Shown piece by piece: positions 1,444 to 64,000 of a stretch of DNA of 64,000 nt. The DNA is taken from the NCBI GenBank assembly GCA_050008535.1, contig JBEKML010000002.1, forward strand, positions 148,881 to 212,880, written 5' to 3'. The notes under the pieces were generated by a model that was not told the DNA's origin, did not search any database, and saw only the letters and a list, made by a program, of their open reading frames with translations. Numbering within the stretch: position 1 is the first letter of the stretch; each line of letters starts with the position of its first letter. The DNA is from Minisyncoccia bacterium (lineage in GTDB: Bacteria; Patescibacteriota; Minisyncoccia; UBA6257; 2-01-FULL-56-20). The position numbers and the translations under genes are program-made.

Positions 1444-3849
1444 ATGCTTGGGTTCTACATTCTTCTCTCGGTCGTCATAGGTGCCGTGGCGGGCATTGCG
1501 GTGTACTTCGGCATTCGCGTCGCGGTGCGGAAGCGGATCGCGTCGTCCTTGAGCACCACGCTCTTTTTGGTGAAGATCCCAAAACCGTCGATGACCGGCC
1601 AGGGGACTCCCGCCGGCGCGAGCGAGCACAGCGACCTCAAAACCGAACTTGCGCACTTTGAACAGCTCCTGGGCAGCATGGCCGCCATCCAGAAGCCGTT
1701 CACCTTCGAGATCGCGGTGCCGCACGTGGGCGAGGAGATCAGTTTTTACCTTGCCGTGCCGAAGCGCTCGTCCGAGGTGGCGGCAAAACAGATCCAGGGG
1801 CTGTGGAGCGGCGCGTCCGTCGAGGCGGCGACGGACGACTTCAATATTTTCAACGTAAACGGCGCTTCAACCGCCGCCTATATGAAACAGAAGGAGCGTT
1901 ACGGCCTGCCTATCCGCACCTATATCGAGCTTGGCACGGATTCGTTTGAGTCCATCCTCGGCGCGCTCGCGAAAATAGACGAGATCGGCGAGGGAGCGGC
2001 GCTGCAGGTCGTGATGCGGCCGGCGCCTTCGGGCGTGAAGGATGAGGTGCGGCACGTAATAGAACGGCTTAAGAAAGGCGAGACCTTCAAAAAAGCGTTC
2101 CACGGGGATTTCCACCGGTCGTTTTCCGACGCGGGCGAAGTTTTCAATCCAAAAACAAAAGAAAAGAAAGCGGAAGAAAAGCAGGAACACGTGGTGGACG
2201 AGGAAGCGGTGAAAGCACTGCAATCAAAGATCACGAAGCCGCTCTTTTTTGTGAACGTGCGGATAGTGGCGTCGGCCGGGTCGCCGTTCCAGGCGAACGA
2301 CATCCTGGACGGCATCGCGGCCGGCTTCAGTCAGTTCGCAAGCCCCATGCGGAACGAGCTCCGGGTCGTCACGCCGCGGAATCCCAGCAAGCTCATCCGC
2401 CAATTCATCGCCCGCGAGTTTGACGCCGGCCAGGCCATGACCCTCTCAACCGAAGAGATCGCAAGCTTCTACCATTTCCCGATCGCTTCCACCGAGACGC
2501 CGCGCGTGAAGTGGCTGAAGTCAAAAGAAGCCCCGCCGCCGGAAGACCTCCCGCAGAAGGGGACGCTCCTCGGCGACGCCGTCTTCCGCGGGCAGATGAA
2601 GCCGGTCTATCTCACGGATGATGACCGCCGCCGGCATCTCTACGTGATCGGGCAGACGGGCACGGGGAAATCCACATTCCTCGGCAACATGGTGATAGAA
2701 GACATCCGGGCGGGCAAGGGCGTGGCGATCATTGACCCACACGGCGACCTTGTGGAGAACGCCCTGGGCTTCGTGCCGAAGGAGCGCCTGGACGACGTGA
2801 TCTATTTCGATCCGGGCGACCTCGCGCGGCCGCTCGGCCTGAACATGCTTGATTACAATATAAACCGGCCGGAGGAAAAGACGTTCATCGTGAACGAGAT
2901 GCAAAGCATCTTCAACAAGCTCTTCCCGCCGGAAACGATGGGGCCGATGTTTGAGCAGTACATGCGGAATGCGCTCCTTTTGATGATGGAGGACATGCCG
3001 AACGAACCAACGACCCTGATCGAAGTGCCGCGCATTTTCACGGATTCCGCGTACCGCGCGCGCAAACTGGAGCGCATCCACAATCCGGTCGTTGTTGATT
3101 TCTGGCAGAAGGAAGCGGTGAAGGCGGGCGGCGAGGCGTCGCTTGCGAACATGACGCCCTATATCACCTCCAAGTTCAACAACTTCATTTCCAACGACTA
3201 TATGCGGCCGATCATCGGCCAGCCGAAGTCGGCGTTCAATTTCCGCGAGGTGATGGATTCGGGGAAAATTTTATTGATCAATCTTTCCAAGGGGAAAATA
3301 GGGGATATCAACGCGGGGCTCCTTGGGATGGTCTTTACGGGGAAGATCCTCATGGCCGCGCTCTCGCGCATTGACGTGGCGGATGCGGCGCAGCGGCGGG
3401 ACTTCAATCTTTACATAGACGAGTTCCAGAACTTTACGACGGATTCTATCGCGACGATTTTGTCCGAGGCGCGGAAGTACCGCCTGAACCTGACGATGGC
3501 GCACCAGTTCATCGGCCAGCTGACAGACAAGATCAAAGATGCGGTCTTTGGGAACGTGGGATCTATGCTTGTGTTCCGGGTTGGCGTGCAGGATGCGGAG
3601 TTTCTTGTGAAGCAATTTGAGCCGGTGTTCAACCAGAATGATTTGCTTAATATTGATAATCTGAATGCGTATGCGAAGATTCTTATTAATGGGCAGACGT
3701 CGAGGCCGTTCAATATGAAGGTGGGGACGATGTCGTGGGGAGGGGGGAATAAAGAACTTGCTGGGAAGCTTAAGGAATATTCAAGGATGAAATACGGAGC
3801 TGATCGGCAGGCTATAGAAGACGAAATTTATCGGCGGCTTCGGGAATAG
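1444..3849 (+). CDS. T4CP-like ATPase (VirD4/TraG/TraD/TrwB-type) with N-terminal TM helix and a large N-terminal domain
   Basis: Walker A HLYVIGQTGTGKST is followed by the AIIDPHGD motif, which matches TrwB HLLIVGATGTGKS...VIVDPNGD. Walker B is NLYIDEFQNF (the DEF type typical of coupling proteins). There is one N-terminal TM segment. The gene is paralogous to the partial ORF at 62778-64000. Confidence 0.6.
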   Translation: MLGFYILLSVVIGAVAGIAVYFGIRVAVRKRIASSLSTTLFLVKIPKPSMTGQGTPAGASEHSDLKTELAHFEQLLGSMAAIQKPFTFEIAVPHVGEEISFYLAVPKRSSEVAAKQIQGLWSGASVEAATDDFNIFNVNGASTAAYMKQKERYGLPIRTYIELGTDSFESILGALAKIDEIGEGAALQVVMRPAPSGVKDEVRHVIERLKKGETFKKAFHGDFHRSFSDAGEVFNPKTKEKKAEEKQEHVVDEEAVKALQSKITKPLFFVNVRIVASAGSPFQANDILDGIAAGFSQFASPMRNELRVVTPRNPSKLIRQFIAREFDAGQAMTLSTEEIASFYHFPIASTETPRVKWLKSKEAPPPEDLPQKGTLLGDAVFRGQMKPVYLTDDDRRRHLYVIGQTGTGKSTFLGNMVIEDIRAGKGVAIIDPHGDLVENALGFVPKERLDDVIYFDPGDLARPLGLNMLDYNINRPEEKTFIVNEMQSIFNKLFPPETMGPMFEQYMRNALLLMMEDMPNEPTTLIEVPRIFTDSAYRARKLERIHNPVVVDFWQKEAVKAGGEASLANMTPYITSKFNNFISNDYMRPIIGQPKSAFNFREVMDSGKILLINLSKGKIGDINAGLLGMVFTGKILMAALSRIDVADAAQRRDFNLYIDEFQNFTTDSIATILSEARKYRLNLTMAHQFIGQLTDKIKDAVFGNVGSMLVFRVGVQDAEFLVKQFEPVFNQNDLLNIDNLNAYAKILINGQTSRPFNMKVGTMSWGGGNKELAGKLKEYSRMKYGADRQAIEDEIYRRLRE

Positions 3850-4074
3850 GCCTCTGCCTGCGGCCTTGCCTTTGCGGGTACGGGCGTTCTCGCGCTCCAG
3901 CGGCGCGAGCCACCCTGCTCTCTCGCCCCGATTGCCGAAATGCACCCAATGGCATTTCGGACCAAGCCAATCGGGGCTCCGAGAGCCCCCGCCAAGGCAA
4001 GGGCGCAGGCGGAGTTCCATCCATTGAAAAGAATGGCAAAAAATCGTAAAATTTGAGAAAGTTCTAAGAAGAAA

Positions 4075-4953
4075 ATGGCCAAGAGAAAACTTATAAAGAA
4101 GTCAAGGAAGACTTTAGGAAAATTTAATGCCCGGGAGCGTAAGATAATGGAAAATCTTATGCCAGCATATTACAAACAAGGTAGCTTTGCCTTGTATCAC
4201 GGAAACTCTTTGGATGTTTTGGCCGAATTCCCCGAGAACTCGGTGGATATGATATTTGCCGATCCTCCATACAATCTTTCCAATGGTGGATTTTCAGTAC
4301 ATGCAGGGAAAATGGTAAGTGTAAATAAGGGAGATTGGGATAAAAGTAGAGGATTTAAAGGCGATTACGATTTCCATTACAAATGGCTGGAAGCAGTAAG
4401 GCGCATACTGAAGCCAGGTGGTTCATTGTGGGTGAGTGGGACTTATCATTCAATATATCAGTGCGGACACGCAATTCAGGCTTTGGGTTACCATATTCTA
4501 AACGATATTGCATGGTTCAAACCAAATGCATCGCCAAATTTAAGTTGCCGATTCTTTACAGCAAGCCATGAAACATTAATATGGGCCCGTAAAGATACGA
4601 AAGGGAAGCACGTTTTTAATTATGCGGCGATGAAAAATGGTATCTGGAACAGCGATTTTCTAAAAAAACCGAATGTGCAAATGCGATCAGTGTGGGCTAT
4701 TGGAACACCAAAATCAGAGGAAAAGAAGTTTGGCAAACACCCAACTCAAAAACCACACGAGCTATTAAAGCGTATCGTTCTTGCAAGCACCAACAAGGGA
4801 GACTTGATAGTGGATCCCTTTACGGGGAGTTCAACAACGGGCGTTGCGGCTAATCTTTATGGCAGAAAATTTATCGGCATCGATACGGAAAAAAAATTCC
4901 TCGACCTCTCCATCAAACGGTTTGAAGATATGATCAGGAATCAATTGGTATAG
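4075..4953 (+). CDS. Type II DNA methyltransferase, beta-class, probably N6-adenine (or N4-cytosine)
   Basis: Motif IV DPPY (FADPPYNL) lies N-terminal to motif I FxGxG (DPFTGSSTTG), which is the beta-class order. The gene sits in an AT-rich island. Confidence 0.8.
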   Translation: MAKRKLIKKSRKTLGKFNARERKIMENLMPAYYKQGSFALYHGNSLDVLAEFPENSVDMIFADPPYNLSNGGFSVHAGKMVSVNKGDWDKSRGFKGDYDFHYKWLEAVRRILKPGGSLWVSGTYHSIYQCGHAIQALGYHILNDIAWFKPNASPNLSCRFFTASHETLIWARKDTKGKHVFNYAAMKNGIWNSDFLKKPNVQMRSVWAIGTPKSEEKKFGKHPTQKPHELLKRIVLASTNKGDLIVDPFTGSSTTGVAANLYGRKFIGIDTEKKFLDLSIKRFEDMIRNQLV

Positions 4954-4954
4954 T

Positions 4955-5533
4955 CTACCTTTTTGTATAGCCTGGTAGGGCGGCCTGAAGAACTTCCGTG
5001 TAGTGAAGCTTATTATCAATATAGTCGCGAAGTGCTGTGAGGAGATCGTGAAACATATAGGCACCCGCGCGGAGCTTTTCGTTTTTCGAGAATAATTCGA
5101 TAACCGTTGCAACGTAATCAAGCGAGAGGGTATAAGGTTGATCTATGTGGGCATATTTTGATGTAATTTCTTCCACGGTTTCGAGTTGATAATTATTCCG
5201 TTCTTCAACTGAGAAAAATGGTTTGCTGCGATCGTAAAATTTGATGTAATATTCAATAATTTCCCGTACTTCGGCGCGGTATTGCGGAATTTTTAGAAGA
5301 AGATCAACTACCCAAAACGTATGTGTCGGCGGTCTGAGTCGTTTGTCTCCGCCAGGGATTAAGATTTTAATGACGAAGTCCAATTCAGGGTTTGCTCCGC
5401 GACTTCCTTGGAAAAGACCAATTAGTGTTCCATCCCGCGTTGTGTAGGTCTTAAAAGCAGAGACGTTTGGACGAATTTGTTTCAAATTCGTCCCGTCATA
5501 ATATTTGGGGTTGTAAACCAATGGCGCTGGCAT
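4955..5533 (-). CDS. Restriction endonuclease second part (C-terminal or specificity portion) or separate subunit
   Basis: Its start lies 4 nt after the stop of 5538-6062, in the +1 frame, on the same strand and in the same AT-rich island. No independent motifs were recognised. Confidence 0.4.
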   Translation of the reverse strand: MPAPLVYNPKYYDGTNLKQIRPNVSAFKTYTTRDGTLIGLFQGSRGANPELDFVIKILIPGGDKRLRPPTHTFWVVDLLLKIPQYRAEVREIIEYYIKFYDRSKPFFSVEERNNYQLETVEEITSKYAHIDQPYTLSLDYVATVIELFSKNEKLRAGAYMFHDLLTALRDYIDNKLHYTEVLQAALPGYTKR

Positions 5534-5537
5534 GTTG

Positions 5538-6062
5538 CTAAGTTTGAGGCTTTGGGAGACCTAAAAAATCAAGGGGAAGACTTTGAAAATAATAATGGCA
5601 ACCAACTGCTTTTATGAAGTCCAGTGTGTCTTTATATTCTGGCTTTTGGAACCAATCACTTAAAATATAAATAAACTCAGTCTCGATCCCGAGCGGCTTA
5701 AACAATTTTTGATATTGCCTCTTTTTAAAATCGCATGTTTGTAGCTTCTCGTCTACGGATCCAGCGACCGCCTGGAATTTTATTTCTATAATAAAAACTT
5801 TTTTCTGGCTTGGAACATAGAGCGCTTCGTCTGGGAGTAGCTTCTTTGAAAGTACGGTTTTATAATCTACCTCGCGCTCTTCAAGAAATCGATAAAGCTT
5901 GTTCTTGCCGATACTTTGTGCTACTACCTTTCCGGTATGCAGAATCAAGTCGCCATCTACGGAGTATCCTGGCGTTTTGGCAAAGACCAACAGTAAATTA
6001 ACCCGACCCTCAAAATCAAGCCCGACTCGCGTCCTTGCGCCACCAATCCCGTGCTTTATCAT
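5538..6062 (-). CDS. Restriction endonuclease, PD-(D/E)xK nuclease fold (N-terminal part or catalytic subunit)
   Basis: LLPDE...VFIIEIKFQ gives a PD...ExK arrangement. Convergent with the methyltransferase and AT-rich like it. Confidence 0.5.
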   Translation of the reverse strand: MIKHGIGGARTRVGLDFEGRVNLLLVFAKTPGYSVDGDLILHTGKVVAQSIGKNKLYRFLEEREVDYKTVLSKKLLPDEALYVPSQKKVFIIEIKFQAVAGSVDEKLQTCDFKKRQYQKLFKPLGIETEFIYILSDWFQKPEYKDTLDFIKAVGCHYYFQSLPLDFLGLPKPQT

Positions 6063-6155
6063 GGGCGTTTAACCAAATTTTAATCATTTTTTAATGAATT
6101 GTACAAGTTCCACGTTCCAGTGTGCTCGTCATTATCAACATGGTATAATAAACAC

Positions 6156-6470
6156 ATGAAAAGGGTGGTGGTTTTTGGAGCGCTGCTTCTCGTGGGAATC
6201 GGTTTGATCGCTGTGGCGATGCATCCTGCCTATGCTTACGTAAGTGTTCGCGGCTATTATCGGAGCAATGGGACATACGTCCAACCCTATGTGCGCTCCA
6301 GTCCGAACAGCTTGAAATATGACAACTACAATTATTCTGGAGGAAGCTTATACAACAATTCCTATTACGCACCGACAAAGAATTACAGTCCGAGCTGGTA
6401 TACACCTTCATATGTAACTGATCCATATTATTATCAGGGGAAAAGCATCTATAACTCACGTCGTTTTTAA
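6156..6470 (+). CDS. Small secreted Tyr/Asn/Ser-rich protein with signal peptide
   Basis: MKRVVVFGALLLVGIGLIAVAMHPAYA looks like a signal peptide; the mature part is rich in Y, N and S. The six-frame track start at 6099 is probably an upstream extension. Confidence 0.4.
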   Translation: MKRVVVFGALLLVGIGLIAVAMHPAYAYVSVRGYYRSNGTYVQPYVRSSPNSLKYDNYNYSGGSLYNNSYYAPTKNYSPSWYTPSYVTDPYYYQGKSIYNSRRF

Positions 6471-6585
6471 TCAAAATTTAATGATTAGTATGTTATATTT
6501 GGATTTGACGTATGATTTATAAAATGTTAAAATCCGTCATCAGCAACTTTGTCGGAGTTGTTTGTGTATAATAAAGACAACCCTT

Positions 6586-7461
6586 ATGGGGAAGAAAATA
6601 ACTAAGAAAAGAGTTCACCAAAACGAGTCACTAATAGGAGAGTTGATTGAATTGCGGACCGAAGTCTGCAAGTTGCCAAGATTGTCGCCGATCGAAAAAG
6701 AACTTCATGAGGCAGAGGTCCGTTTTGAAGCAACCTATCATTCCAATAAACTAGAGGGGAATAAGCTTTCTGAGGATGAAGCGAGAAGCGCGATAATGAT
6801 ATAAGTTTTTATGGCGTTTCCGCAGAATAAAAAAGATTTGGATATCTTAGAAGAAAGAGGCTATTGGAAGGCCTCTTCTTTTTTAAGTAATACAGTGCAC
6901 AAGCTGATTCGTAAAAATTTGCCGTTTGAACTTGGATATGTTAAGCAGGCCCACAAGATTACTTTCGATGCCGCTAATCAATCAGGCATAGCTGGCAAAT
7001 ATCGTCGTGACAATCCGGAGCTGAAGAGAATTGATGGATCATTGCTTGTTATTACGCATTGGCACAATGTTCCGAACGAAATGGCAAAATTGGATACAGA
7101 AGTACGTTTAGCCACGAGGGGATTGAGGAAGGTGAGGACGAAGGGACAGTATAGAAACATTATTGAAAAGGCTGCGCGTCTTTCTCATCGATTAGCATGT
7201 ATTCATCCTTTTGAAAACGGAAACGGACGCGCTTCACGCTTGCTCCTAAATGCTATTCTTATGCGAGCCGGATTGCACGAAGTAGCTATTAAGGTAGATA
7301 AAGATAGATACCTACGAAGTATGCGGCAGGCAGACGACGGAGACTTCTCGATGCTCAAAAAAATAATATTAGAAAGTTTGGTTGAGAATGAAAAAAAATT
7401 GTACAAGTTAGTCAAAAGGAAGCAAGCGGAACAAGGCAAGCATAAAAAGTGCCGTTCTTAG
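6586..7461 (+). pseudogene. Fic/DOC family protein (AMPylator-like) interrupted by an in-frame TAA at 6802-6804
   Basis: The upstream piece carries the Fic N-terminal YHSNKLEGNKLSEDE motif. The downstream piece, in the same frame, carries the catalytic HPFENGNGRASR (HPFx[DE]GNGR) motif. A TATAAT box lies at 6566-6571. Confidence 0.55.
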
Positions 7462-7574: not shown

Positions 7575-7710
7575 TGGGTTATCCAGAGTGCGGGGAGGGA
7601 ACTGGCCCTACGATCCGCCGGCAACTTGCGAGGGCAAAGTGCTAATTCCAGCCCGAAAGGGGAAGATAAAGGTCGTAGCGCTTTTTCTTTCGGGAATGGC
7701 GTTTTTTATT
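7575..7710 (+). ncRNA. SAM-I (S-box) riboswitch with terminator-like expression platform
   Basis: GGTTATCCAGAGTGCGGGGAGGGAACTGGCCCTACGATCCGCCGGCAACT and AAAGTGCTAATTCCAGCCCGAAAGGGGAAGATAAAGG match the S-box consensus (GAGGGA.UGGCCC.AUGA..CCGGCAACC, GGUGCUAAUUCCAGC, and a P1 pairing TTATC/GATAA). A hairpin cccgaaag/ctttcggg plus a T-run follows, directly upstream of metK. Confidence 0.8.
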
Positions 7711-7738
7711 TGGTAATAAACAAAATAAAATTAAAATT

Positions 7739-8686
7739 ATGAACACAAAAATACGAACGGCGGAATTTGTTTCGCCAAGGCATCCGGACAAAATGTGCGA
7801 CCTTATCGCGGACACGCTTCTTGATGCGTTCCTTGCGGGGGATAAAAAGAGCCGCGTCGCGGCGGAGGTGATGGGCGGCCACGGGCACATCACTGTTTCG
7901 GGGGAGATCACGAGCCGGACGGACGTGGATATGGAAAAGATCGTGAAGGGCGTGGTGGGCGAGGAGTACAACGTTCACGTTTACCTTACGAAGCAGAGCC
8001 CGGAGATCGCGCAGGGCGTGGACACGGGCGGCGCGGGCGACCAGGGGATCATGATGGGGTATGCTACGCGGGAAGCCGAGAATTTTATGCCCCTGGAATA
8101 CGAGCTTGCGCGGGATCTCTGCCGGAAGATATATGCAAAATATCCGCATGACGGGAAAACGCAGGTGACGGTGGAGGGCACGAAGGTACGCACGGTCGTC
8201 GCGAGCTTTCAGGGTACAAAGACCCCGGAACTTATGGCGCTCGTGCGGGGGCTTATAAAAGCCGACGAGTATCTTGTGAATCCTGCGGGTGAGTGGATGA
8301 TGGGCGGCTTTGACGCCGATTCGGGAATTTCCGGCCGGAAGATCGTCATTGATAACTACGGCCCGGAGGTGGGCGTGGGCGGGGGATCCTTCTCCGGCAA
8401 GGATTACACAAAGGTGGACCGGAGCGGCGCCTACATGGCGCGCCGCATCGCGGTGGACTATTTGAAACAGCACGCGGACGTGGAAACGGTGCGCGTGAAG
8501 CTCGCGTACGCGATAGGGAAGGCGGAGCCCGTGATGGCGGTTTTGGACGCGGACGGCGTGGAGGTTGCCATTCAGGGATATGACCTCTCGCCTGCGGGGA
8601 TCTTCAAGTTTCTGGAGTTGGACAAGGTCCGGTGGGCGGAGACGTCGAGCTGGGGGCACTTCGGACGTGAGTTCAGTTGGGGATAG
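7739..8686 (+). CDS. metK: S-adenosylmethionine synthetase (short form)
   Basis: SPRHPDKMCDLIAD and GAGDQGIMMGYA are MetK signatures, and the C-terminal GHFGRE block is present. Confidence 0.9.
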   Translation: MNTKIRTAEFVSPRHPDKMCDLIADTLLDAFLAGDKKSRVAAEVMGGHGHITVSGEITSRTDVDMEKIVKGVVGEEYNVHVYLTKQSPEIAQGVDTGGAGDQGIMMGYATREAENFMPLEYELARDLCRKIYAKYPHDGKTQVTVEGTKVRTVVASFQGTKTPELMALVRGLIKADEYLVNPAGEWMMGGFDADSGISGRKIVIDNYGPEVGVGGGSFSGKDYTKVDRSGAYMARRIAVDYLKQHADVETVRVKLAYAIGKAEPVMAVLDADGVEVAIQGYDLSPAGIFKFLELDKVRWAETSSWGHFGREFSWG

Positions 8687-12137: not shown

Positions 12138-13889
12138 ATGGATGCCGAAAGCCGCAACTGCGCAAAATGTAAAAGCCAGTTTGTTGTTGAGCCGGAGGAT
12201 TTTGATTTTTACGCGAAGATAAGCGTTCCGCCGCCCACGTGGTGCCCGGAGTGCCGCAATCAAAGGAGGATGGCGTGGCGCGAGGAACGCGTGCTCTACC
12301 GCGGGACCTGCGCGTTGTGCGGAAAAGCGGTGGTTACCATGCACGCGCCCGGCGGTCCCTTCACGATCTATTGCCGGGAGTGTTACAAATCCGACAAGTG
12401 GGACTCGACGAGCTACGGGCGCGACTACGATTTCAAGAAACCGTTCTTTACGCAATACCGCGAACTTATGGAAGCCGTCCCGCGGCCGGCGCTCACGGGC
12501 AATAATTTGGTCAATAGCGATTTCACGCACGGATGCGAAAGCGTAAAAAATTGTTACTACCTTTTCTGGAGCTATTTTTCGGAAAACGCGGGGAACTGCT
12601 ACGGACTGCTTCTTTCCAAAAACGCCTACGATTGCTACGTGGTGGACAATTCCGACCATGTGTACGAGTCGTTGCATTCCAACCGTATGTACAAGATCAG
12701 GTTCGGCTATTTTTCCGACGAGTGCCTCGATTCATCGTTCCTTTACAATTGCCTCGGGTGCTCTGATTGTTTTGGGTGCATCAACCTAAGGAAACAAAAA
12801 TACTGCCTTTTCAACGAAAAATTGTCCAAAGAAGAATACTCCGCGAGGATCAAGGAGTGGGACTTGGGAAGTTATAAAAAACTGCAGGAGGCGAAGGAGA
12901 AATTCCGGGCTTTGTATATGTCCGTCCCGCACCGCTTCGCCCATGTCGTAAGCAGCCAAAACGTCACGGGGGATATCATACGGGACACGAAAGATTGCAA
13001 AATATGTTTTTGCGCATTGGATGGCGTGCAAAACTGCAAGTATCTGTACGCCGGCGGCCTCAATCTCAAAGACAGCATGGATGTAAGCGCCGGCGGCGAT
13101 ACGGCGGAGTTGCTTTATGAAGTGCACGGGGTGACCGGGCATGCATCGCGGTGTTTTTTCTCGGTGGGAGGAGGGAACAGCAGGGATACCTGGTATTCCG
13201 ATTGGGCGGATAATTCATCGGATGTATTCGGCTGCGTTTCTTTAAGGAACAAGCAGTATTGCATCTTGAACAAACAATATTCCCGCGAGGAGTATGAAAA
13301 ACTTGTCCCAAAGATCAAACAGCACATGGACGCCATGCCGTTCGTGGACAAGAAGGGGCGCGCGTACAAATTCGGGGAATTTTTCCCGACGGAACTTTCC
13401 GCGTATGCCTATAACGAAACATTCGCCTTTACCTGGTATCCAAAGGTGTTAACGAAGGACGAGGTGCTTGCCGAAGGTTGGCGGTGGCAGGACCCGTCGA
13501 CACGCTCTTACGAGGTCACCATGAAGGCGGAAGGTCTTCCCGACCATATTCGTGACGCAAGCGATTCAATTTCAAAAGAGACCATCGGCTGCCTGCACGC
13601 CGGAGCGTGCAATGAACTATGCACGACCGCGTTCCGCATTTCGCCCGAGGAGCTCGCTTTCTATCGAAAGATGAATGTTGCCCTGCCGCGGTTGTGCCCA
13701 AATTGCCGGCACGTGCAACGATTGAAATGGCGGAATATTTTCCATTTGTGGCATCGGCGTTGCATGTGCATCCATGCAGGTCATTCCCATGCCGGGCAAC
13801 CGTGCCCAAATACTTTTGAGACCACTTTCTCGCCGGAAAAACCGGAGGTTGTTTATTGCGACCAGTGTTACAAAGCCGAATTCCTATGA
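12138..13889 (+). CDS. Cys-rich multi-zinc-ribbon protein, paralog P2
   Basis: N-terminal CxxCxxxFxVEPEDFxFYxKIxVPPPTWCPECR zinc ribbon. Two internal CFGCxxLRxxKYC modules. C-terminal CxTAFRIxPEELxFYRKxNxALPRLCPNCRH...WHRRCMC and a tail PEVVYCDQCYKAEFL. A TATAAT box lies at 12125-12130. Confidence 0.8.
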   Translation: MDAESRNCAKCKSQFVVEPEDFDFYAKISVPPPTWCPECRNQRRMAWREERVLYRGTCALCGKAVVTMHAPGGPFTIYCRECYKSDKWDSTSYGRDYDFKKPFFTQYRELMEAVPRPALTGNNLVNSDFTHGCESVKNCYYLFWSYFSENAGNCYGLLLSKNAYDCYVVDNSDHVYESLHSNRMYKIRFGYFSDECLDSSFLYNCLGCSDCFGCINLRKQKYCLFNEKLSKEEYSARIKEWDLGSYKKLQEAKEKFRALYMSVPHRFAHVVSSQNVTGDIIRDTKDCKICFCALDGVQNCKYLYAGGLNLKDSMDVSAGGDTAELLYEVHGVTGHASRCFFSVGGGNSRDTWYSDWADNSSDVFGCVSLRNKQYCILNKQYSREEYEKLVPKIKQHMDAMPFVDKKGRAYKFGEFFPTELSAYAYNETFAFTWYPKVLTKDEVLAEGWRWQDPSTRSYEVTMKAEGLPDHIRDASDSISKETIGCLHAGACNELCTTAFRISPEELAFYRKMNVALPRLCPNCRHVQRLKWRNIFHLWHRRCMCIHAGHSHAGQPCPNTFETTFSPEKPEVVYCDQCYKAEFL

Positions 13890-22603: not shown

Positions 22604-23413
22604 TTACGCCATCTGCTTCCGGCTGTGCAACCTGTACGCAAGGCCGAGGAGCCCAATGACGAGGAGTGCGGTGTTTGGCTCGGGAATAGTACCGCCGCCG
22701 GTCGTTGCTTCGCAACCCGACACGACATTCGTATCCATCGTCACGGCGCCGTTGCGCGCCAGGGCTCTACCGCACGGAATGTTCGCGCCGGTGTTCAACG
22801 TGATACTCGTGAGCGCCAGGATATTTCCTGCGAAATTGGTGTGGGTCCCGAGAGTTGCCGAACTACCCACCAGCCAAAAGAGGTTACCGCCCGTGCCACC
22901 GTCGGCAAAAAGAACAGACGCGCCACTTGCGGTCGTGAGCGTGCTCCCCATCCGGAAAAGGAAGACCGCATTCGGATCACCCTCGGCGTCGAGCGTGAGC
23001 GTTCCAGTCAACTGAGCCGACGACGCAAAGCAATAGACTCCTGGCGTGAGCGTCATGCCGCCAAGGTCTTGACCGGTCAAGGCGCTCGAGCACTCTTCAC
23101 CTGCGGCAAAATTGTATGCCGAGGTCAGATCGCTCTGGGCCTGCCTCGCGACGTTATCCGCGGAGTGTATCGTTCCTCCGCTCACAATCCCAGGAGGAAA
23201 TCCTGTGATTGCGGTACCCAGCCATACCCCCAGATTTCCATTGATGCTGGTCGCGCCGGTATTGGTCACTGTTGATCCGCCGAGAACAGCAAAAGAGTCC
23301 GCTGTCCCAAGATCGACGTTGATAGCGCCAGCATAAACGCCTGCTGGCAGCAAAAACGAGAGAATCACCAAGCAAATGCCACGCATACTTTCCACCCTCA
23401 GCTCCCATCTCAA
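22604..23413 (-). CDS. PEP-CTERM sorting-domain protein with ice-binding-like (DUF3494) domain
   Basis: Signal peptide. DUF3494-like block SFAVLGGSTVTNTGATSINGNLGVWLGTAITGFPPG. C-terminal IPEPNTALLVIGLLGLAYRLHSRKQ fits PEP + TM helix + basic tail. Confidence 0.7.
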   Translation of the reverse strand: MRWELRVESMRGICLVILSFLLPAGVYAGAINVDLGTADSFAVLGGSTVTNTGATSINGNLGVWLGTAITGFPPGIVSGGTIHSADNVARQAQSDLTSAYNFAAGEECSSALTGQDLGGMTLTPGVYCFASSAQLTGTLTLDAEGDPNAVFLFRMGSTLTTASGASVLFADGGTGGNLFWLVGSSATLGTHTNFAGNILALTSITLNTGANIPCGRALARNGAVTMDTNVVSGCEATTGGGTIPEPNTALLVIGLLGLAYRLHSRKQMA

Positions 23414-27799: not shown

Positions 27800-28392
27800 G
27801 GAACGGATTCTCGCTCGTTGAAATATTGATCGTCATTGCGATCGCCACATCGCTTGTTCTTGTGGTGAGCAGTTTGAGCGGCAACGTAAACGTGCTGAAC
27901 AATCTCGTAAGCCAGGAACTTCAATCAAAATCCGACATCAATCAGACATTGCAGATCGTAACGGGCGATATTCGTTCGGCAGGCCCCTCGGCGAACGGCG
28001 CATATCCCATTGACGCGGCGGGGACGAGCTCGTTCGCCTTTTACAGCGACTCGGACGCCGACGGCGCCATCGAGCGCGTGCGCTACTTTTTTGCATCATC
28101 AAGCATCTATCGCGGCGTGATCCAGCCGACCGGCACGCCTCCGGCCTACCCGACCGCAACCGAGGTCTTAACGGACCTCATAGACAACGTCATCATTCCT
28201 ACTTCCACGTCCCTCTTCAACTACTACGATGCCTCCTATACCGGCACGCAACCGGCGATGACCTCCACCGCGAACATCGCCACGATCCGGCTCGTCGGCG
28301 TTTCGTTCTCTTCCGACGTGCAGCCGAGACAATCGCCCGGACCGCAACATTTTTCGATCCTGGTGGACATAAGAAATTTGCGAAGCAACTGA
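27796..28392 (+). CDS. Prepilin-type minor pilin / pseudopilin
   Basis: N-terminal NG-FSLVEILIVIAIA (G-F...E5). Confidence 0.7.
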   Translation: MRNGFSLVEILIVIAIATSLVLVVSSLSGNVNVLNNLVSQELQSKSDINQTLQIVTGDIRSAGPSANGAYPIDAAGTSSFAFYSDSDADGAIERVRYFFASSSIYRGVIQPTGTPPAYPTATEVLTDLIDNVIIPTSTSLFNYYDASYTGTQPAMTSTANIATIRLVGVSFSSDVQPRQSPGPQHFSILVDIRNLRSN

Positions 28393-28393
28393 C

Positions 28394-29809: not shown

Positions 29810-29816
29810 AAGGACG

Positions 29817-50189: not shown

Positions 50190-51380
50190 ATGATCCAGCG
50201 TGGCATCGCTTCTTTCGGGCTTGATTACGGCCGCTGTCCACCGTGGCTTTTTGAACGGATGGTGAAGCTCGGCCGCGAGATGGCATATGTGCTCGTCGCC
50301 GAGTACGGCCCGGATGAATTCATAAAGCGGATCGCGGATCCGGCATGGTTCCAGTCGCTCGGCACGGTACTGGCGTTTGATTGGAATGCATCGGGGCTCA
50401 CGACCATTCTGACCGCGGCGCTGAAAGAAGCTATCCGCGGCCGCGAGCGCGAGTTGGGGATTTTTATCTGCGGCGGAAAAGGGAAAACCTCGCGCAAAAC
50501 GCCGGAGGAGATCATGCAATGGGGCGAGAAGCTCTCGCTTCCCGCGCCTGCAACGAACAACCTTGTCTACAATTCGAAAATGAGCGCAAAGGTGGATAGC
50601 GCGCTCGTGCAGGACGGGTTCCAGCTTTATCACCATTCGTTTTTCTTTTCGCGCGGCGGCGCGTGGGCGGTCGTCCAGCAGGGGATGAACAAGGAAAAAC
50701 GCTCGGCACGACGGTATCACTGGTTTTCAGAAAATATCAACGACCTTGTTTCAGAGCCGCATTCCGGTATCTCTTCGCCCGTGGTTTTGAACCGCGTTTT
50801 AAATCTTACGGCGAAACAGAGTACGCAAACGCGCGAGATTTCCACCGAGCTTGTGCAGGCGGGCTACGCAACGCTCATGAAAGACATCCAACTTTTGCGC
50901 AAGTATTCCTCGCCGCTTTCGCAGATGGCGCAATTTGAGAACGCGCGCGGGGAGCAGCTTTCGCTTTTGAACCTTGAAACGCGCGAGTTCAAATCCCACC
51001 CGGTGGTATACGAGGATTTTTCAAAGAGCAAATATCTGGAAAAGGTGCTCGCGAAAGTAACCGACCGGAAGCCGGAGAATTATGAAAAACTGATCGCCAT
51101 TGAGGGCGTGGGGCCGAAGACCGTGCGTGCCCTCGCGCTCGTAGGCGAAGTGATCTATGGTGCAAAGCCCTCCTATGAAGATCCTGCGCGTTACAGCTTT
51201 GCGCATGGCGGTAAGGATGCCACGCCGTATCCCGTGGACCGCATAACCTACGACCAGACGATCACGATCCTTGGCGAAGCGGTGCGCAAAACGCGACTCT
51301 CGCCGGACGAAAAACGCCGCGCGCTCGGACGGCTGCAGGTCGGGAGAAGCGGTCAGCAAGGCGCCGGACGGGTGCTATAA
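50190..51380 (+). CDS. DUF763-like protein
   Basis: Large conserved hypothetical protein with an IEGVGPKTVRAL helix-hairpin-helix-like motif. Confidence 0.4.
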   Translation: MIQRGIASFGLDYGRCPPWLFERMVKLGREMAYVLVAEYGPDEFIKRIADPAWFQSLGTVLAFDWNASGLTTILTAALKEAIRGRERELGIFICGGKGKTSRKTPEEIMQWGEKLSLPAPATNNLVYNSKMSAKVDSALVQDGFQLYHHSFFFSRGGAWAVVQQGMNKEKRSARRYHWFSENINDLVSEPHSGISSPVVLNRVLNLTAKQSTQTREISTELVQAGYATLMKDIQLLRKYSSPLSQMAQFENARGEQLSLLNLETREFKSHPVVYEDFSKSKYLEKVLAKVTDRKPENYEKLIAIEGVGPKTVRALALVGEVIYGAKPSYEDPARYSFAHGGKDATPYPVDRITYDQTITILGEAVRKTRLSPDEKRRALGRLQVGRSGQQGAGRVL

Positions 51381-53130
51381 TTGGAGTATTCCCGGGCTAG
51401 AAACCAAAACCTGCCAAAACTGCAAACAACCGTTCGTCATTGAGCCGGACGATTTTGCGTTTTATCAAAAGATTGATGTCCCGCCGCCGACGCTTTGCCC
51501 GGAGTGCCGTATGCAGCGTAGGCTCGCGTGGAGGAATGAGCGATCTATTCACAAACGCGCCTGTGATCTATGCGGAGCTAGTGTTATTGGAATGTATCCT
51601 GCCACTACGAAATTTCCGGTTTACTGCCATTCTTGTTGGTGGTCGGATAAATGGGACCCCATCGTGTATGGAAGGGAGTATGATCCGAGCCGGTCCTTTT
51701 TTGAACAATGGAAGGAGCTGCAAAATGTGGTGCCTCGTCCGGAACATAATAACAGCGGAAACATTGTGAACAGTGCGTATACAAACTGCGCCGCGGACAT
51801 GAAGAATTGCTACCTGGTTTTTGGGGCACAGAAAGACGAGAATTCCATGTATTCGCATTATTTAAATCAATCAAACGAATGCTTAGACCTTCTGCACGTT
51901 TTTTCTTCTGAAAAATGCTACGACTGCTTTGATGCTGAGCAATGCCACTCGGTTCGATATTCGCAATCGTCGATGAATTGTCGAAACTCGTTTTTTCTAT
52001 ATGACTGTAAAAACTGTTCCGACTGCATCGCGTGTATCGGGTTACGGAACAAGCGATTTCACATCTTTAACGTTCCTTATGCAAAGGAAGAGTATCTGAG
52101 AAAGAGGGACGAATTTCGACTAGACTCCAGACGTGGCATCGAAGATCTAAGGAAAAGATTTCTGAGTAACGAGCTGTATCGTGCTTTTCCGCGCAGATTC
52201 TTTCACGGCCAGTTGAACACAGCGAGTACGGGTGATTACATTAGTGAAAGTGAAAACGCGTTAAGCTGTTTTTACGCAAAGGGTTTGCGGGGCTGTAAAT
52301 ACGTTTTCTGGGCGCACAACATGAAGGATTCATATGACTACTTTGCTTTTGCAGATCCCGATGAGCTTGCTTACGAAAGAGTGTCGGGCGGGTACGGGGA
52401 TTATAATTGCAAATTTACTGAAGCATCATGGATAGGTAATCGCGACCTCGAATATTGCGGGCTTTGCTATAACACTAGATCTCTTTTTGGGTGTATCGGT
52501 CTCAGGAAAAAAGAGTTTTGTATTTTGAACAGGCGGTATGCGGAGGCGGAATACCATGAACTCGTTGTACGGATTCGCAAGCAGATGACGGAAACGGGGG
52601 AATACGGAGAATTTTTCCCAATATCGCTTTCGCCGTTTCCATATTGGGATTCGGTTGCACAGGAGCATTTCCCATTGACAAAAGAACAGGTCTTGGAGAA
52701 GGGGTATGGATGGCGCGAGCCGGATCCCCGCACTCAGAAAATTACGAGAACGCCAAGCGAACTGCCGGATACGATTGCCGAGGTGTCGGACGATATTTTG
52801 AACGAAACGATCGGCTGTGAGCATGGCGGGGTGTGCGCCCATCAATGCACGGTCGCATTTCGGATCACTCCTGAGGAGTTAAAATTCTATAGAGAACAGA
52901 ATATTCCGCTTCCAACGCTCTGTTTTCAGTGCCGCCATGCATCTCGCATCGCCCTTCGAAGCCCGCTTAAGCTCTGGCACCGCAAATGCATGTGCGATGG
53001 GAAGGTATACCAGAACACCGCCACCCACCAGCATCAGGATGTATGCCCCACCGGATTCGAAACCTCCTACGCCCCCGACCGGCCGGAGATCGTCTACTGC
53101 GAACAGTGCTACAACGCGGAGGTGGCGTAA
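51271..53130 (+). CDS. Cys-rich multi-zinc-ribbon protein, paralog P3 (start uncertain)
   Basis: TCQNCKQPFVIEPDDFAFYQKIDVPPPTLCPECR matches the P2 and P4 N-termini from about residue 40. Two CIGLRNK/CIGLRKK modules. C-terminal CTVAFRITPEELKFYREQNIPLPTLCFQCRH...WHRKCMC...ETSYAPDRPEIVYCEQCYNAEVA. The only in-frame ATG/GTG/TTG lies 110 nt inside the upstream gene; a TATAAT box lies at 51375-51380. Confidence 0.75.
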   Translation: MAKRCAKRDSRRTKNAARSDGCRSGEAVSKAPDGCYNWSIPGLETKTCQNCKQPFVIEPDDFAFYQKIDVPPPTLCPECRMQRRLAWRNERSIHKRACDLCGASVIGMYPATTKFPVYCHSCWWSDKWDPIVYGREYDPSRSFFEQWKELQNVVPRPEHNNSGNIVNSAYTNCAADMKNCYLVFGAQKDENSMYSHYLNQSNECLDLLHVFSSEKCYDCFDAEQCHSVRYSQSSMNCRNSFFLYDCKNCSDCIACIGLRNKRFHIFNVPYAKEEYLRKRDEFRLDSRRGIEDLRKRFLSNELYRAFPRRFFHGQLNTASTGDYISESENALSCFYAKGLRGCKYVFWAHNMKDSYDYFAFADPDELAYERVSGGYGDYNCKFTEASWIGNRDLEYCGLCYNTRSLFGCIGLRKKEFCILNRRYAEAEYHELVVRIRKQMTETGEYGEFFPISLSPFPYWDSVAQEHFPLTKEQVLEKGYGWREPDPRTQKITRTPSELPDTIAEVSDDILNETIGCEHGGVCAHQCTVAFRITPEELKFYREQNIPLPTLCFQCRHASRIALRSPLKLWHRKCMCDGKVYQNTATHQHQDVCPTGFETSYAPDRPEIVYCEQCYNAEVA

Positions 53131-53144: not shown

Positions 53145-54896
53145 ATGGATACCAAAACGAAGACCTGTGCGAATTGTAAAACGCGGTTTACTATAGAACC
53201 TGACGACTTCTCGTTCTACCAAAAGATTGATGTTCCGCCGCCGACGTTTTGCCCGGGGTGCCGCTACATCCGGCGGCTTTTGGATCGCAACGAATATAAT
53301 TTTTATCGCCGCAAGTGCAATGCGACGGGAGAAAACATCATTTCAATCTATCGTCCCGACGCGCCGTTCCCGGTGTACAAGCAGGACTATTGGAAATCGG
53401 ATGCGTTCGACGGGCTTGCCTATGGCCGGGATTTTGATTTCAGCCGCCCATTCTTTGAGCAATACGAGGAGCTCCGCCGCGTAGTACCGCACCTCGCACT
53501 TGTGAATGCAAGCAGCGAGAACAGCGAATATACCAATCAATCCCAGGATAACAAGGATTGTTACATGCTCGTTACGAGCAATACGAGCGAAAAATGCATG
53601 TACGGGAGCTGGTGCCAGAATAAATGTTTTTTCTTGTCAGATTGCTATATGGTGGAAGGAAGCGAGTTCTGCTATGAATGCATGAACCTTACGAAATGTT
53701 CCCGTTGCAGATGGTGCCGCGATTGTTCCGACTGCATTGATATTTGTTTTTCAGTTGATTGTCGCGGATGTACAAATTGCTTCGGCTGTGTGGGCCTGCG
53801 AAACAAGCAGAACTGCTGGGGCAACGAACAGTTGGATAAGATTGAGTACGGGCGCAGACTGAAAGAATTCCCATGGACAAATGGGGCCATAGCACGTGCG
53901 CAGGAAGAACTCTCAAAGTTACGAGTAAAGATTCCGGTGAAATACTATCATGGTTCACAAACGCAAAATTCCTCCGGCGACTATCTGGAAAACACACAGC
54001 GGGTGCGCATGGCTTTTAACTGTCGCGACAACAAGGATACGGCGTATATGCAGGACGCGTGGAATCAGACGGAGGATTGCTTGGATTGTACGGAGATTAT
54101 TATTGCGCAGTTGTCGTATGAGATACAAGGCGTTGATACTCCGCATCGGACCATCGTGGCGCGAAGTTGTTTTGATACCGTAGTCGATTCTTGCTATTGC
54201 GATATGTGCTTCAATGCGAACAATTGTTTCGGGTGCTTTGGATTAAAACAGAAACAATACTGTATTTTGAACAAGCAATATTCCAAAGCAGAATATCTCG
54301 CGCTGAAAGAAAAGATAATTGATCATATGAAGCAAGCGGGGGAGTGGGGCGAATATTTCCCGCCGAACGTGTCACCCTTCGCCTATAACGAATCCATGGC
54401 ACAGGATTACTTTCCGCTCATGCGGGAAGAGGCGGTTAAGCGGGGATATTCTTGGTATGATCGCCCCGCCACGCAGTATGACATTACTTTGACCTCGGAT
54501 AAACTGCCGAGAACCATTTCCGAAACCACCGACGATATTTTGAACCAGACGATCCAGTGCAAGACACAGGAGAGCGAAGAAGAAAAAAAGAAAAATCCCT
54601 TGTGTGTTACCGCGTTCAAGATAGTTCCCTTAGAGCTTACGCTGTACCGAAAGATCGGGATTCCCGTTCCCGAGTACTGTTTCCCGTGCAGGCGCACAAA
54701 ACGTTTTGCGTTCCGCAATCCACGTACGCTCTATAAAGGAGTATGCCAATGTAACGGGCCGAAGGCGACATGCAAAAACACCGCGGAACACTTTCATGGC
54801 GCAAGCCATTGTCCCAATGGATTCGAAACTTCCTATGCCCCCGACCGGCCCGAGATCGTCTACTGCGAACAGTGCTATAACGCGGAGGTGGCGTAA
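53145..54896 (+). CDS. Cys-rich multi-zinc-ribbon protein, paralog P4
   Basis: In tandem with P3, 14 nt after its stop. Same N-terminal, internal and C-terminal modules. The last ~85 nt are about 92% identical to P3. Confidence 0.8.
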   Translation: MDTKTKTCANCKTRFTIEPDDFSFYQKIDVPPPTFCPGCRYIRRLLDRNEYNFYRRKCNATGENIISIYRPDAPFPVYKQDYWKSDAFDGLAYGRDFDFSRPFFEQYEELRRVVPHLALVNASSENSEYTNQSQDNKDCYMLVTSNTSEKCMYGSWCQNKCFFLSDCYMVEGSEFCYECMNLTKCSRCRWCRDCSDCIDICFSVDCRGCTNCFGCVGLRNKQNCWGNEQLDKIEYGRRLKEFPWTNGAIARAQEELSKLRVKIPVKYYHGSQTQNSSGDYLENTQRVRMAFNCRDNKDTAYMQDAWNQTEDCLDCTEIIIAQLSYEIQGVDTPHRTIVARSCFDTVVDSCYCDMCFNANNCFGCFGLKQKQYCILNKQYSKAEYLALKEKIIDHMKQAGEWGEYFPPNVSPFAYNESMAQDYFPLMREEAVKRGYSWYDRPATQYDITLTSDKLPRTISETTDDILNQTIQCKTQESEEEKKKNPLCVTAFKIVPLELTLYRKIGIPVPEYCFPCRRTKRFAFRNPRTLYKGVCQCNGPKATCKNTAEHFHGASHCPNGFETSYAPDRPEIVYCEQCYNAEVA

Positions 54897-60926: not shown

Positions 60927-60929
60927 CCC

Positions 60930-62636: not shown

Positions 62637-62777
62637 GTCCAGTTTATACCTATGACACTAGTGTATGCTTTGTTTGCCGTCAAGCGGCGCGATTTCCTGC
62701 GGCCGTTCCGGCGGTCATTAACGAAGTAGGGCCTCTTTTGTTATGCTCGCGATGGGTTATAATAAGGATAATTAACT

Positions 62778-64000
62778 ATGGACGCAGTACAGGGAATCCT
62801 ACAGAGCGCGTGGCAAGTTTTTACGTACGCGTGGTGGATCTGGCTCCCCATCATTTTGTGGCCTCTTTTCAGGTCCACGTGGCTTTTTTGGCGGCAATCG
62901 CTCTATAAACGTGATCTGCAGACAAAGTATATCCTTTTGGAACTTCGCATTCCACGCGAAATAAAAAAGAACCCGCGGGCGATGGAGCAGGTGCTTATAG
63001 CGATCCACGCCCTTCGGAACGCCGCGATGGACATGCGCGAAATATGGTGGGACGGCGAGGTGACGGTGTGGTATGCGATGGAGATCGTAAGCTTGGGCGG
63101 TGAAATACATTTTTACTTACGGACGATCAAAAAACAAAAAGATCTTATCCAGGCGGCGTTCTTTTCGTATTATCCCGACGTGGAAGTTGTTGAAGTTGAA
63201 GATTACATGGATCGCCTGCCATCCAACATGGGAGAGGTGCATAAAAGCGGCTACAACCTCTGGGGCACCGAACTTTTACTTGCAAAAGAAGACGCTTATC
63301 CTATACGGAGCTATCTGGACTTTGAGTCGCCGGACGAGGATAAACAATACGACGCCATGTCCACCTTCCTTGAGATTTTGGGTAAAGTAAAAAAAGAAGA
63401 AACGGTCGGCATTCAGATCCTCATCGCGCCAGCGGCGCCCGACTGGGGCGCGAAGTGGAAAGATTTTGTGGAGAAAATGCGGGTGAGAGAACAGGGGAAG
63501 AAGAAAGTCGGAGGAGGATCGACTCATGCGCTGGGAATGGAATTCCCGCACATCCTTCCTGTTTTTCCGGTAAAGAAAATCGGAGAGGACAAAAAAGATG
63601 AATATGCCCCACTCATGAAATCCTTCATGCGGACGCCCGGCGAGACCGATGTATTGAAGGCCGTGGAGGAGAATCTTTCAAGGCCCGGTTTTGATACCCT
63701 GGTCCGCTTTTTTTACCTTTCCCCCAAAGAGCTTTTCGGCGACACGTTCCCGAGAAGGGGTGTCATTGGGGCCTTTAACCAATATGGATCGTTGGATCTG
63801 AATTATTTCACGCAGAACTTTGCCGTGGGCACAAGGATCAAGTTCTGGCGGGGACCGTGGCAAATACCGAACTTTTTTGCCAAGAGCCGCATCGCTCGGA
63901 GGCAGGAGCGGATCCTCTCGTCCTATCGCACGCGGGAGGTCCCTCCGGAAACCTTAATGGGAAGGGTGATCCTTACCAAAACCTTTAACATTCATCAGTC
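62778..64000 (+). CDS. T4CP-like ATPase paralog (3'-truncated by window end; N-terminal domain only)
   Basis: The ORF is open from ATG 62778 (AAGGA ribosome-binding site) to the window end, so it is absent from the ORF track. It has an N-terminal TM helix. Its blocks YAMEIVSLGGEIHFYLRTIK and YPIRSYLDFESPDE align to FTFEIAVPHVGEEISFYLAVPK and LPIRTYIELGTDSFE of 1444-3849. Confidence 0.55.
   Translation, partial: MDAVQGILQSAWQVFTYAWWIWLPIILWPLFRSTWLFWRQSLYKRDLQTKYILLELRIPREIKKNPRAMEQVLIAIHALRNAAMDMREIWWDGEVTVWYAMEIVSLGGEIHFYLRTIKKQKDLIQAAFFSYYPDVEVVEVEDYMDRLPSNMGEVHKSGYNLWGTELLLAKEDAYPIRSYLDFESPDEDKQYDAMSTFLEILGKVKKEETVGIQILIAPAAPDWGAKWKDFVEKMRVREQGKKKVGGGSTHALGMEFPHILPVFPVKKIGEDKKDEYAPLMKSFMRTPGETDVLKAVEENLSRPGFDTLVRFFYLSPKELFGDTFPRRGVIGAFNQYGSLDLNYFTQNFAVGTRIKFWRGPWQIPNFFAKSRIARRQERILSSYRTREVPPETLMGRVILTKTFNIHQ

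Follow-up and report, generated by a model that had tools for sequence, protein, structure and literature searches.

A DUF8128 domain and a coupling-protein-like ATPase, fused in one gene and split over an operon, in the chromosome of a Minisyncoccia bacterium

The closest described counterparts of the genes analyzed here are ATPases of type IV secretion systems (T4SS). Type IV coupling proteins (T4CPs) of the VirD4/TrwB type typically carry a transmembrane domain (TMD), usually of two helices as in TrwB of plasmid R388 (PDB 1E9R), directly before the nucleotide-binding domain (NBD), and they are linked to relaxase/DNA transfer and replication (Dtr) genes and to a mating-pair formation (MPF) cluster containing VirB4. 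A 2020 review of T4CP architectures distinguishes VirD4-type, TMD-less, FtsK-type and archaeal forms and includes no large N-terminal cytoplasmic domain, and Guglielmini et al. described VirB4 and VirD4 as sister clades, with the T4CPs acquiring an N-terminal membrane domain. In R388, VirB4 (TrwK; PDB 7O42, 7O43 and 8RTD, with the C-terminal domain, CTD, in 4AG5) dimerises through its N-terminal domain (NTD), to which the membrane anchors VirB3 and VirB8 bind as well (PMC9259494). Here we describe two genes from a 64-kb stretch of DNA (hereafter the window) of the metagenome-assembled genome (MAG) of a Paceibacteria-type bacterium of the Candidate Phyla Radiation (CPR; Minisyncoccia/Paceibacterota, Patescibacteria): ORF A, in which a large domain of the DUF8128 family is fused to a T4CP-like ATPase, and ORF B, which opens an operon encoding this module in split form.

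T4CP homologues are common in this group. In the survey by Quinonero-Coronel et al. (2025, PMC12102498), 5,713 VirD4-type homologues were counted in 2,918 Patescibacteria genomes, 148 of them near virB4; relaxases were rare, a separate VirB4 was located near oriC and homologues of TrsD were the most abundant T4SS component. Two T4CP homologues in one genome are expected, because about two per genome is the norm given there. ORF A and the split-type proteins are almost certainly among these homologues, for which the authors of the survey suggest exaptation. The accessible text of the survey describes no N-terminal domain, no fused, split or zinc-ribbon types and no Cys-rich arrays, and in the literature that we searched the name DUF8128 occurs in no paper.

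ORF A (positions 1444-3849, + strand) encodes 801 aa, and its product is identical to an NCBI entry named 'DUF87 domain-containing protein [Minisyncoccia bacterium]'. It starts with a single transmembrane (TM) helix (aa 1-29, positions 1444-1530, + strand; Kyte-Doolittle 2.49; helix 2-36 in the AlphaFold2 (AF2) model, pLDDT 76.5) followed by the residues RVAVRKR, and by the positive-inside rule the remainder of the protein is predicted to be cytoplasmic. The DUF8128 domain (PF26449) covers aa ~33-372 (~340 aa; positions 1540-2559, + strand) and closes with the junction motif LS.EEIASFYHFP...SKEAPPPEDLP, after which comes a RecA-type P-loop ATPase domain (aa ~381-760; positions 2584-3723, + strand). 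This domain contains, all on the + strand, the Walker A motif GQTGTGKS (aa 403-410, nt 2650-2673), the motif AIIDPHGD (aa 428-435; IIDPHGD at nt 2728-2748) and the Walker B motif LYIDEFQNF (aa 656-664; YIDEF at nt 3412-3426), as well as a helical insertion at aa ~476-582. A preliminary description of this DNA had reported an ORF with Walker A, IIDPHGD and DEF-type Walker B motifs behind a TM helix and a large domain atypical of canonical coupling proteins, and it was correct on each of these points; the ORF is intact, and canonical VirD4-type T4CPs have no such domain. Whereas TrwB has its two-helix TMD, ORF A has one TM helix and ~340 aa of cytoplasmic DUF8128, and a TMD placed directly before the NBD is found neither in ORF A nor in the split ATPase described below.

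At the opposite end of the window, the frame of ORF B (positions 62778-64000, + strand) is open to the window end, as noted previously. The window contains the first 407 of its 462 aa and, as given by a 100%-identical full-length database entry (462 aa), its stop codon ends 166 nt past the window, at the window-equivalent position 64166. ORF B consists of a Trp-rich N-terminal helix and DUF8128 and has no ATPase domain, so that of the two paralogous ATPases proposed earlier for the two window ends the paralogy was confirmed and the second ATPase was not. The ATPase is a separate 489-aa gene located two genes downstream of ORF B, outside the window, on contig L001, which overlaps the window with 11,223 shared, identical bases and gives ~10 kb beyond its end. 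The order of the split module on this contig is DUF8128 (ORF B), p158, ATPase and p58, followed by at least five tandem Cys-rich paralogues. The protein p158 (158 aa; L001 11386-11862, window-equivalent 64163-64639) has one N-terminal TM helix and a helical domain, carries a motif W.AH..RN.LVH (HEPN-like RNxxxH) conserved in at least 80% of 81 sequences and has no Pfam or PADLOC match; p58 is a 58-aa TM protein, and the split ATPase itself has no TM segment. The split ATPase aligns by blastp with residues 361-794 of ORF A at 34% identity (E 1.8e-81), and the junction motif of ORF A (SKEAPPPEDLPQKG) recurs twice in the split module, C-terminally in ORF B (SKKTGPPAGLAIYG) and N-terminally in the split ATPase (YAPPPPELPIYG). 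A partnership of p158 with the fused ORF A was also considered and rejected, as the hidden Markov model (HMM) of p158 matched nothing in the window or in ORF A-type loci.

The PF26449 assignment was taken from the precomputed Pfam annotation of the exact ORF A and ORF B proteins. Direct comparison of the two by BLASTP gave a weak match (20% identity over 249 aa, E 5e-4), and profile-profile comparison of the two types with hhalign gave a probability of 99.0% and an E value of 5.1e-18 over 319 columns (A 33-372 versus B 44-453); 13 columns were invariant over 57 DUF8128 sequences of both types. The profiles align, so the common N-terminal domain that had been claimed for both ORFs is real.

Conserved synteny and sequence conservation indicate that both the fused and the split versions behave as vertically inherited core genes. 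In 80 split-type loci from GTDB species representatives, all of them Patescibacteria, p158 adjoined the DUF8128 gene in every case, and the ATPase followed in 69 of the 70 loci with enough sequence; DnaJ, SecD/F and a sigma-region-4-like protein preceded the module in 66-74 of the 80. Median identities to the window proteins in these loci were 80% for the ATPase, 51% for DUF8128 and 41% for p158. ORF A-type proteins from more than 100 clusters share 71-84% identity, and in three other genomes their genes lie between mreBCD-PBP2 or mraZ-mraW-PBP-Mur on one side and PGK-DHH-RNase H on the other. In contrast to VirD4/TrwB-type T4CPs, the CPR copies are chromosomal and vertically inherited, with no relaxase or MPF genes nearby. 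Directly upstream of ORF A-type genes elsewhere in Paceibacteria we observed a ~133-aa soluble protein (SPEVKLEIEYL…FVQDAFHDALAGKLYP; L007 7551-7955, L008 7169-7567), which has no counterpart in the window or in the 10 kb that follow.

As for the family of the ATPase, two Pfam models of T4CPs scored above cut-off on ORF A (T4SS-DNA_transf, 31.4 bits with cut-off 20.1, aa 381-696; TrwB_AAD_bind, 22.9 bits with cut-off 20.5) and TraG-D_C fell just under it (20.1 bits, cut-off 22), and on the split ATPase TrwB_AAD_bind reached 38.7 bits (aa 55-366), T4SS-DNA_transf 28.6 bits and TraG-D_C 22.2 bits. TrwB was the only PDB protein found by sequence. Among the VirB4 models, AAA_10 and CagE_TrbE_VirB gave no match to ORF A at E≤1 and TIGR00929 gave 19.1 bits against a cut-off of 643; the NCBIfam HerA model gave 16 bits against a cut-off of 970. 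The FtsK_SpoIIIE Pfam model was below cut-off on ORF A, and the features of FtsK/SpoIIIE, namely its motor-domain model and fold and a multi-TM N-terminus, were not found. The modelled fold puts the ATPase in the VirB4/VirD4/HerA branch without separating VirB4 from VirD4, and because fold cannot part these two, an HMM built from 60 CPR ATPase domains (NBD HMM) was scored on the T4CP/VirB4 pairs of five plasmids. In each of the five pairs the T4CP scored higher than its VirB4 counterpart, namely in R388 (TrwB 32.4 versus TrwK 3.6 bits), Bacillus (143.5 versus -1.6) and Embleya (287.8 versus 17.6), and, by a small margin, in pSK41 (TrsK 25.7 versus TrsE 22.6) and F (TraD 9.4 versus TraC 6.4). 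Single-sequence hhalign to the ORF A profile was too insensitive for this purpose (TrsK 11% over 110 columns, TrsE 80% over 42 columns). Judged by its sequence, the ATPase is a member of the broad T4CP family and of no named subfamily. 'T4CP/VirD4-like', the wording of the preliminary description, is the best family assignment, given the Pfam T4CP models above cut-off, TrwB in the PDB, the NBD HMM pairs and the position of the homologues on plasmids.

These homologues were found by tblastn of ORF A against 72,556 plasmids. Twelve plasmid records, from Streptomyces, Embleya, several Bacillus, Peribacillus, Shouchella and Natrinema, covered at least 80% of ORF A with the N-terminal domain included, and Halobacterium (78%) and Priestia (72%) came just under this coverage. 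The Embleya homologue (WP_331738717) is fused and aligns with ORF A in one piece over 734 residues (27% identity, E 5e-68); it is located between a VirB4 (AAA_10/TraC_F_IV; AAA_10, 45 bits) and a Replic_Relax protein (126 bits), in a cluster that also has PrgI/VirB3, TrbL-like and NlpC/P60 genes. The homologue of B. subtilis NRS6116_2 (WP_144625398), likewise fused, is encoded on a 63.6-kb plasmid, where a 'replication-relaxation family' gene comes after it and the cluster also includes TcpC, TcpD, TcpE and VirB4 (AAA_10, 285 bits). On plasmid pSTJ001 of Halobacterium hubeiense (L093 5758-10154) the match spans two adjacent genes and represents an independent, natural split comparable to that of ORF B and its ATPase, into a 387-aa 'hypothetical protein' (DUF8128 HMM, 60.1 bits) and a 1030-aa T4CP-family ATPase (NBD HMM, 142.5 bits; pair WP_059058557 + WP_157534011). 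The plasmid homologues scored 288/144/143 bits with the NBD HMM and 24/78/60 bits with the DUF8128 HMM.

From these plasmid contexts, therefore, the two-domain protein is the ATPase found at the coupling-protein position in a class of conjugative elements of monoderms and archaea; in the literature searched we did not find it placed there, beside relaxase-type genes, on Bacillus, Embleya or haloarchaeal plasmids. The plasmid proteins have the same DUF8128-like N-domain and ATPase as those of CPR bacteria, fused in Bacillus and Embleya and split in Halobacterium, but they adjoin Replic_Relax/relaxase-type genes, a separate VirB4, PrgI and TcpC/D/E. This linkage to relaxase/Dtr genes and a VirB4-containing MPF cluster, usual for T4CPs, is seen with the plasmid homologues and has been lost by the CPR copies, which, unlike those of plasmids, have multiplied into three paralogous forms. 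The plasmid relatives agree with the derivation of the Patescibacterial T4SS from monoderm conjugation machinery, as concluded in the survey (PMC12102498).

The fold of DUF8128 pointed to the other T4SS ATPase. The AF2 model of ORF B (pLDDT 77.3, pTM 0.77) was searched against the PDB, and no RecA-type ATPase was among the 60 matches listed. An independent search with Foldseek agreed, its 12 best matches being all TrwK chains, with probabilities of 0.91-1.00 and a best E value of 2.8e-4. Because only full-length TrwK contains the VirB4 NTD (residues 15-400, PMC9259494), it is this domain that accounts for the structural match. According to the models, DUF8128 has a fold like that of the VirB4 N-terminal domain, and this feature of VirB4 membership is present in the predicted structure. 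VirB4 as best match, an outcome that the preliminary description had named as speaking against its own assignment, was obtained for fold and not for sequence: likeness of the VirB4 NTD to DUF8128 is undetectable at that level, the VirB4 Pfam and TIGRFAM models are unmatched, and on plasmids a DUF8128-type protein coexists with a true VirB4. On pSK41/pGO1, TrsD, a separately encoded protein with a remote relationship to the VirB4 N-terminus, and the VirB4 ATPase TrsE provide a precedent for an N-terminal piece and an ATPase encoded by neighbouring genes. The precedent is an analogy, as identity of DUF8128 with TrsD was rejected as homology (hhalign probability 0.2%, HMM -1.0 bits).

Both DUF8128 loci are accompanied in this genome by members of a Cys-rich family, of which there are at least nine paralogues in the 74 kb formed by the window and the 10 kb beyond. 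These proteins have ~580 aa, 5-7% Cys, 9-12 CxxC motifs and 12 invariant Cys, with treble-clef zinc ribbons at both ends and a conserved C-terminus (...ETSYAPxRPEIVYCEQCYNAEVV); homologues of the family number more than 4,700, practically all of them from CPR bacteria and none characterised. One paralogue, of which the C-terminal part is contained in positions 3-1085 (+ strand), runs off the left window end directly upstream of ORF A; it shares 39-45% identity with the others (blastp) and belongs to the same family as the arrays after the split module. Further paralogues are found at positions 12138-13889 (583 aa), 51271-53130 and 53145-54896 (583 aa), all on the + strand. The second of these is listed with 619 aa from a TTG codon; its true start is probably near 51397, because similarity to its paralogues begins at aa 44. 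The tandem array of at least five copies after the split module spans L001 13545-21389, beyond the window end. Downstream of the split module, 40 of 52 loci had one or more Cys-rich paralogues, most often four copies, and upstream of it 2 of 55 did; we did not find a link of such arrays to the split module described in the literature searched. A third T4CP-like paralogue type (C) occurs in 18 of the 52 loci, often just after the Cys-rich arrays (examples are L025 15533-17626, L022 8909-10759 and L030 18763-20928). It has neither DUF8128 nor a TM segment, is 43-46% identical to the split ATPase and carries at its end a zf_Tbcl_2 zinc ribbon (C..CG....PFEP..GRPVYC..C, 53.5 bits) together with a long disordered tail; this ribbon type is common to the third paralogue and the Cys-rich family.

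We conclude that the module is a real, domesticated motor of T4CP lineage. The explanation that we favour, and that we hold to be moderately probable, is that ORF A and the split module are fused and split versions of one machine, a domesticated, membrane-anchored ATPase of the T4CP (VirD4/TrwB) lineage with a DUF8128 of VirB4-NTD fold. Like its relatives, the ATPase would assemble into a hexameric ring on the cytoplasmic side of the membrane, and DUF8128 would serve as a membrane-proximal platform for docking and oligomerisation, as the NTD does in VirB4. ORF A would be tethered by its own TM helix, and the split form would rely on p158 and p58 in a role comparable to that of VirB3 as the anchor of VirB4. 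The chromosomal T4SS of Patescibacteria is without VirB10, to which canonical T4CPs bind, and the motor may instead dock NTD to NTD onto the VirB4 of this system, where it would recruit and feed cargo that is not a conjugative relaxosome. As substrates or adaptors of the split module, the Cys-rich zinc-ribbon proteins encoded next to it are the best candidates, and ORF A, far more conserved and standing alone, may serve a housekeeping version of the same reaction. A more far-reaching scenario, which we consider rather unlikely, is that DUF8128-type coupling proteins keep a VirB4-type NTD from a two-domain ancestor of VirB4 and VirD4, which proteobacterial T4CPs would have lost in favour of their TMD. 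After domestication and triplication in the CPR, the split module would dock via DUF8128 on the essential T4SS and deliver rapidly diversifying Cys-rich effectors to the host cell of the epibiont.

Several observations weigh against the explanation that we favour. On ORF A the DUF87/HerA model, which covers the P-loop region only, scored 33.4 bits, marginally above the T4CP models; the NCBIfam matches were T4CP models far under their cut-offs (52.9 versus 366 bits), and a ranking by structure only placed the VirB4 CTD (23.2) and DptH (21.4) above TrwB (20.4). The fold match of DUF8128 rests on AF2 models of moderate confidence (pLDDT ~77), with low TM-scores to TrwK (~0.3), while hmmsearch of the DUF8128 family profile against the PDB returned nothing at E≤10, and the DUF8128 HMM gave at most 2.3 bits on the N-terminal halves of four VirB4s and on TrsD, which amounts to no sequence likeness. 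With regard to a role as substrates, the Cys-rich proteins have neither a signal peptide nor a TM segment, and their link to the split module could be due to synteny alone. As conserved neighbours of the fused type they were rejected, being absent beside ORF A-type genes in three other genomes, and the adjacency of the copy at 3-1085 to ORF A is probably local. Coupling to the Patescibacterial T4SS is a conjecture, with no T4SS channel genes within reach of either locus: VirB3, VirB6 and VirB8 were not found beside them in the window or its flanks. Moreover, in Southlakia epibionticum, the single CPR organism with genetic data, the T4CP homologue was dispensable and the T4SS essential (PMC12102498).

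Other explanations of the same genes were weighed, and we judged each of the four that follow less likely than a domesticated T4CP-lineage machine. The proteins might serve one or two mobile elements, conjugative or integrated, as functional coupling proteins and bring a relaxase-DNA complex to a T4SS, as suggested by T4CP Pfam models above cut-off and by the closest non-CPR homologues, which adjoin relaxase-type genes in conjugation clusters. This is very improbable, since no VirB4, VirB6, VirB8 or relaxase was found in the 74 kb and no Replic_Relax in 1.43 Mb of 83 CPR loci, since both loci lie in housekeeping synteny conserved across many species, and since the identity of ORF A-type proteins over the many clusters is typical of vertical core genes and not of mobile elements; the rarity of relaxases in the surveyed Patescibacteria argues in the same direction. 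The two conjugation modules envisaged in the preliminary description are unlikely for these reasons, and the VirB4, VirB6 and relaxase genes that were to be sought beyond position 64000 did not appear in the next 10 kb. The alternative it offered, a lineage-specific expansion, is half right: two or so T4CP homologues per genome are the reported norm for Patescibacteria, and the two-domain architecture also occurs outside the CPR. Somewhat less remote, though still improbable, are divergent VirB4-type assembly ATPases with a fused or adjacent VirB3-like anchor, energising the assembly of a pilus or channel, a view to which the fold of DUF8128 lends itself. AAA_10 and CagE models do not match, however, TIGR00929 stays at 19 bits against 643, and the CPR NBD HMM ranks VirB4 under the T4CP in every plasmid pair. 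On the Bacillus and Embleya plasmids the homologue takes the T4CP slot beside a bona fide VirB4, and Patescibacteria are reported in the survey to have a separate VirB4 near oriC.

ATPases of the HerA/DptH/MADS type acting in defence or DNA repair are about as improbable as mobile-element coupling proteins. ORF B, p158 with its HEPN-like RNxxxH motif and the ATPase would then form an anti-phage module, yet PADLOC matched the ATPase at superfamily level only and matched DUF8128, p158 and the Cys-rich proteins not at all; no nuclease, SIR2 or NurA partner is present, NCBIfam HerA remains far from its cut-off, and the near-universal syntenic presence of the module, with an ATPase at 80% identity, is unlike that of defence islands. 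We give the least credence to ORF A as an FtsK-like pump for chromosomal or other DNA at the division septum, or as a DNA-uptake motor acting with a type IV pilus. The ORF A-type genes beside mreBCD-PBP2 or mraZ-mraW-PBP-Mur, the membrane anchor of an ATPase of the FtsK/HerA superfamily and the presence of a pilus cluster in the window would suit such a role, but the FtsK/SpoIIIE features are missing, as described above. The pilus cluster (positions 23762-30284; PilB-like ATPase, T2SSE, 392 bits; PilC, T2SSF) is unlinked to both DUF8128 loci, ~20 kb from one and ~32 kb from the other, and no co-conservation was seen, so the earlier proposal of a tie to type IV pili or DNA uptake is unsupported. 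The cluster also encodes a 576-aa CarboxypepD_reg-domain protein and three proteins with N-terminal methylation/class III signal motifs.

The window as a whole is ordinary chromosome, and its genes include PGK, a DHH-family protein, RNase H, a P-type ATPase, MetK, DnaX, ScpAB, S2/EF-Ts, RecO, MurA, MreB, HolB, RRF and RseP. Between ORF A and PGK lies a low-GC (41-44%) island of restriction-modification/Fic genes (positions 4075-7461), comprising an N6/N4 DNA methylase (4075-4953), a 192-aa gene without known family (4955-5533, - strand), a PD-(D/E)XK nuclease-like gene (5538-6062, - strand) and a Fic/DOC protein (6811-7461); it looks inserted, because a related genome (L007) has PGK directly after its ORF A homologue. 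A SAM riboswitch (Rfam RF00162, 59.2 bits) precedes the S-adenosylmethionine synthetase gene (MetK), both within positions 7576-8686, and the enzyme is unusually short (315 aa), its central domain matching the Pfam model partially. An Ice_binding-like protein (PF11999, 211 bits; positions 22604-23413, - strand) adjoins tRNA-Gln.

A large part of bacterial diversity belongs to the Patescibacteria, which are epibionts of other microbes. Among T4SSs, the one on their chromosome was the first for which an essential role in the bacterium that encodes it was demonstrated (PMC12857230, PMC12102498). What the present analysis adds is the relationship of the fused and split forms, the VirB4-N-domain-like fold predicted for DUF8128, the plasmid relatives in the coupling-protein position and the link to the Cys-rich arrays. 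The T4CP homologues counted in the survey (PMC12102498) now fall into defined types, namely fused, split and zinc-ribbon-tailed, and the arrays linked to one of these types offer a candidate set of substrates or adaptors. The extra domain suggests a concrete mode of docking, and a T4CP lineage with a VirB4-like N-domain bears on the divergence of VirB4 and VirD4 and thus on the scenario of Guglielmini et al. The versions on plasmids of Bacillus, Streptomycetaceae and haloarchaea would provide tractable organisms in which a DUF8128-type domain may be studied.

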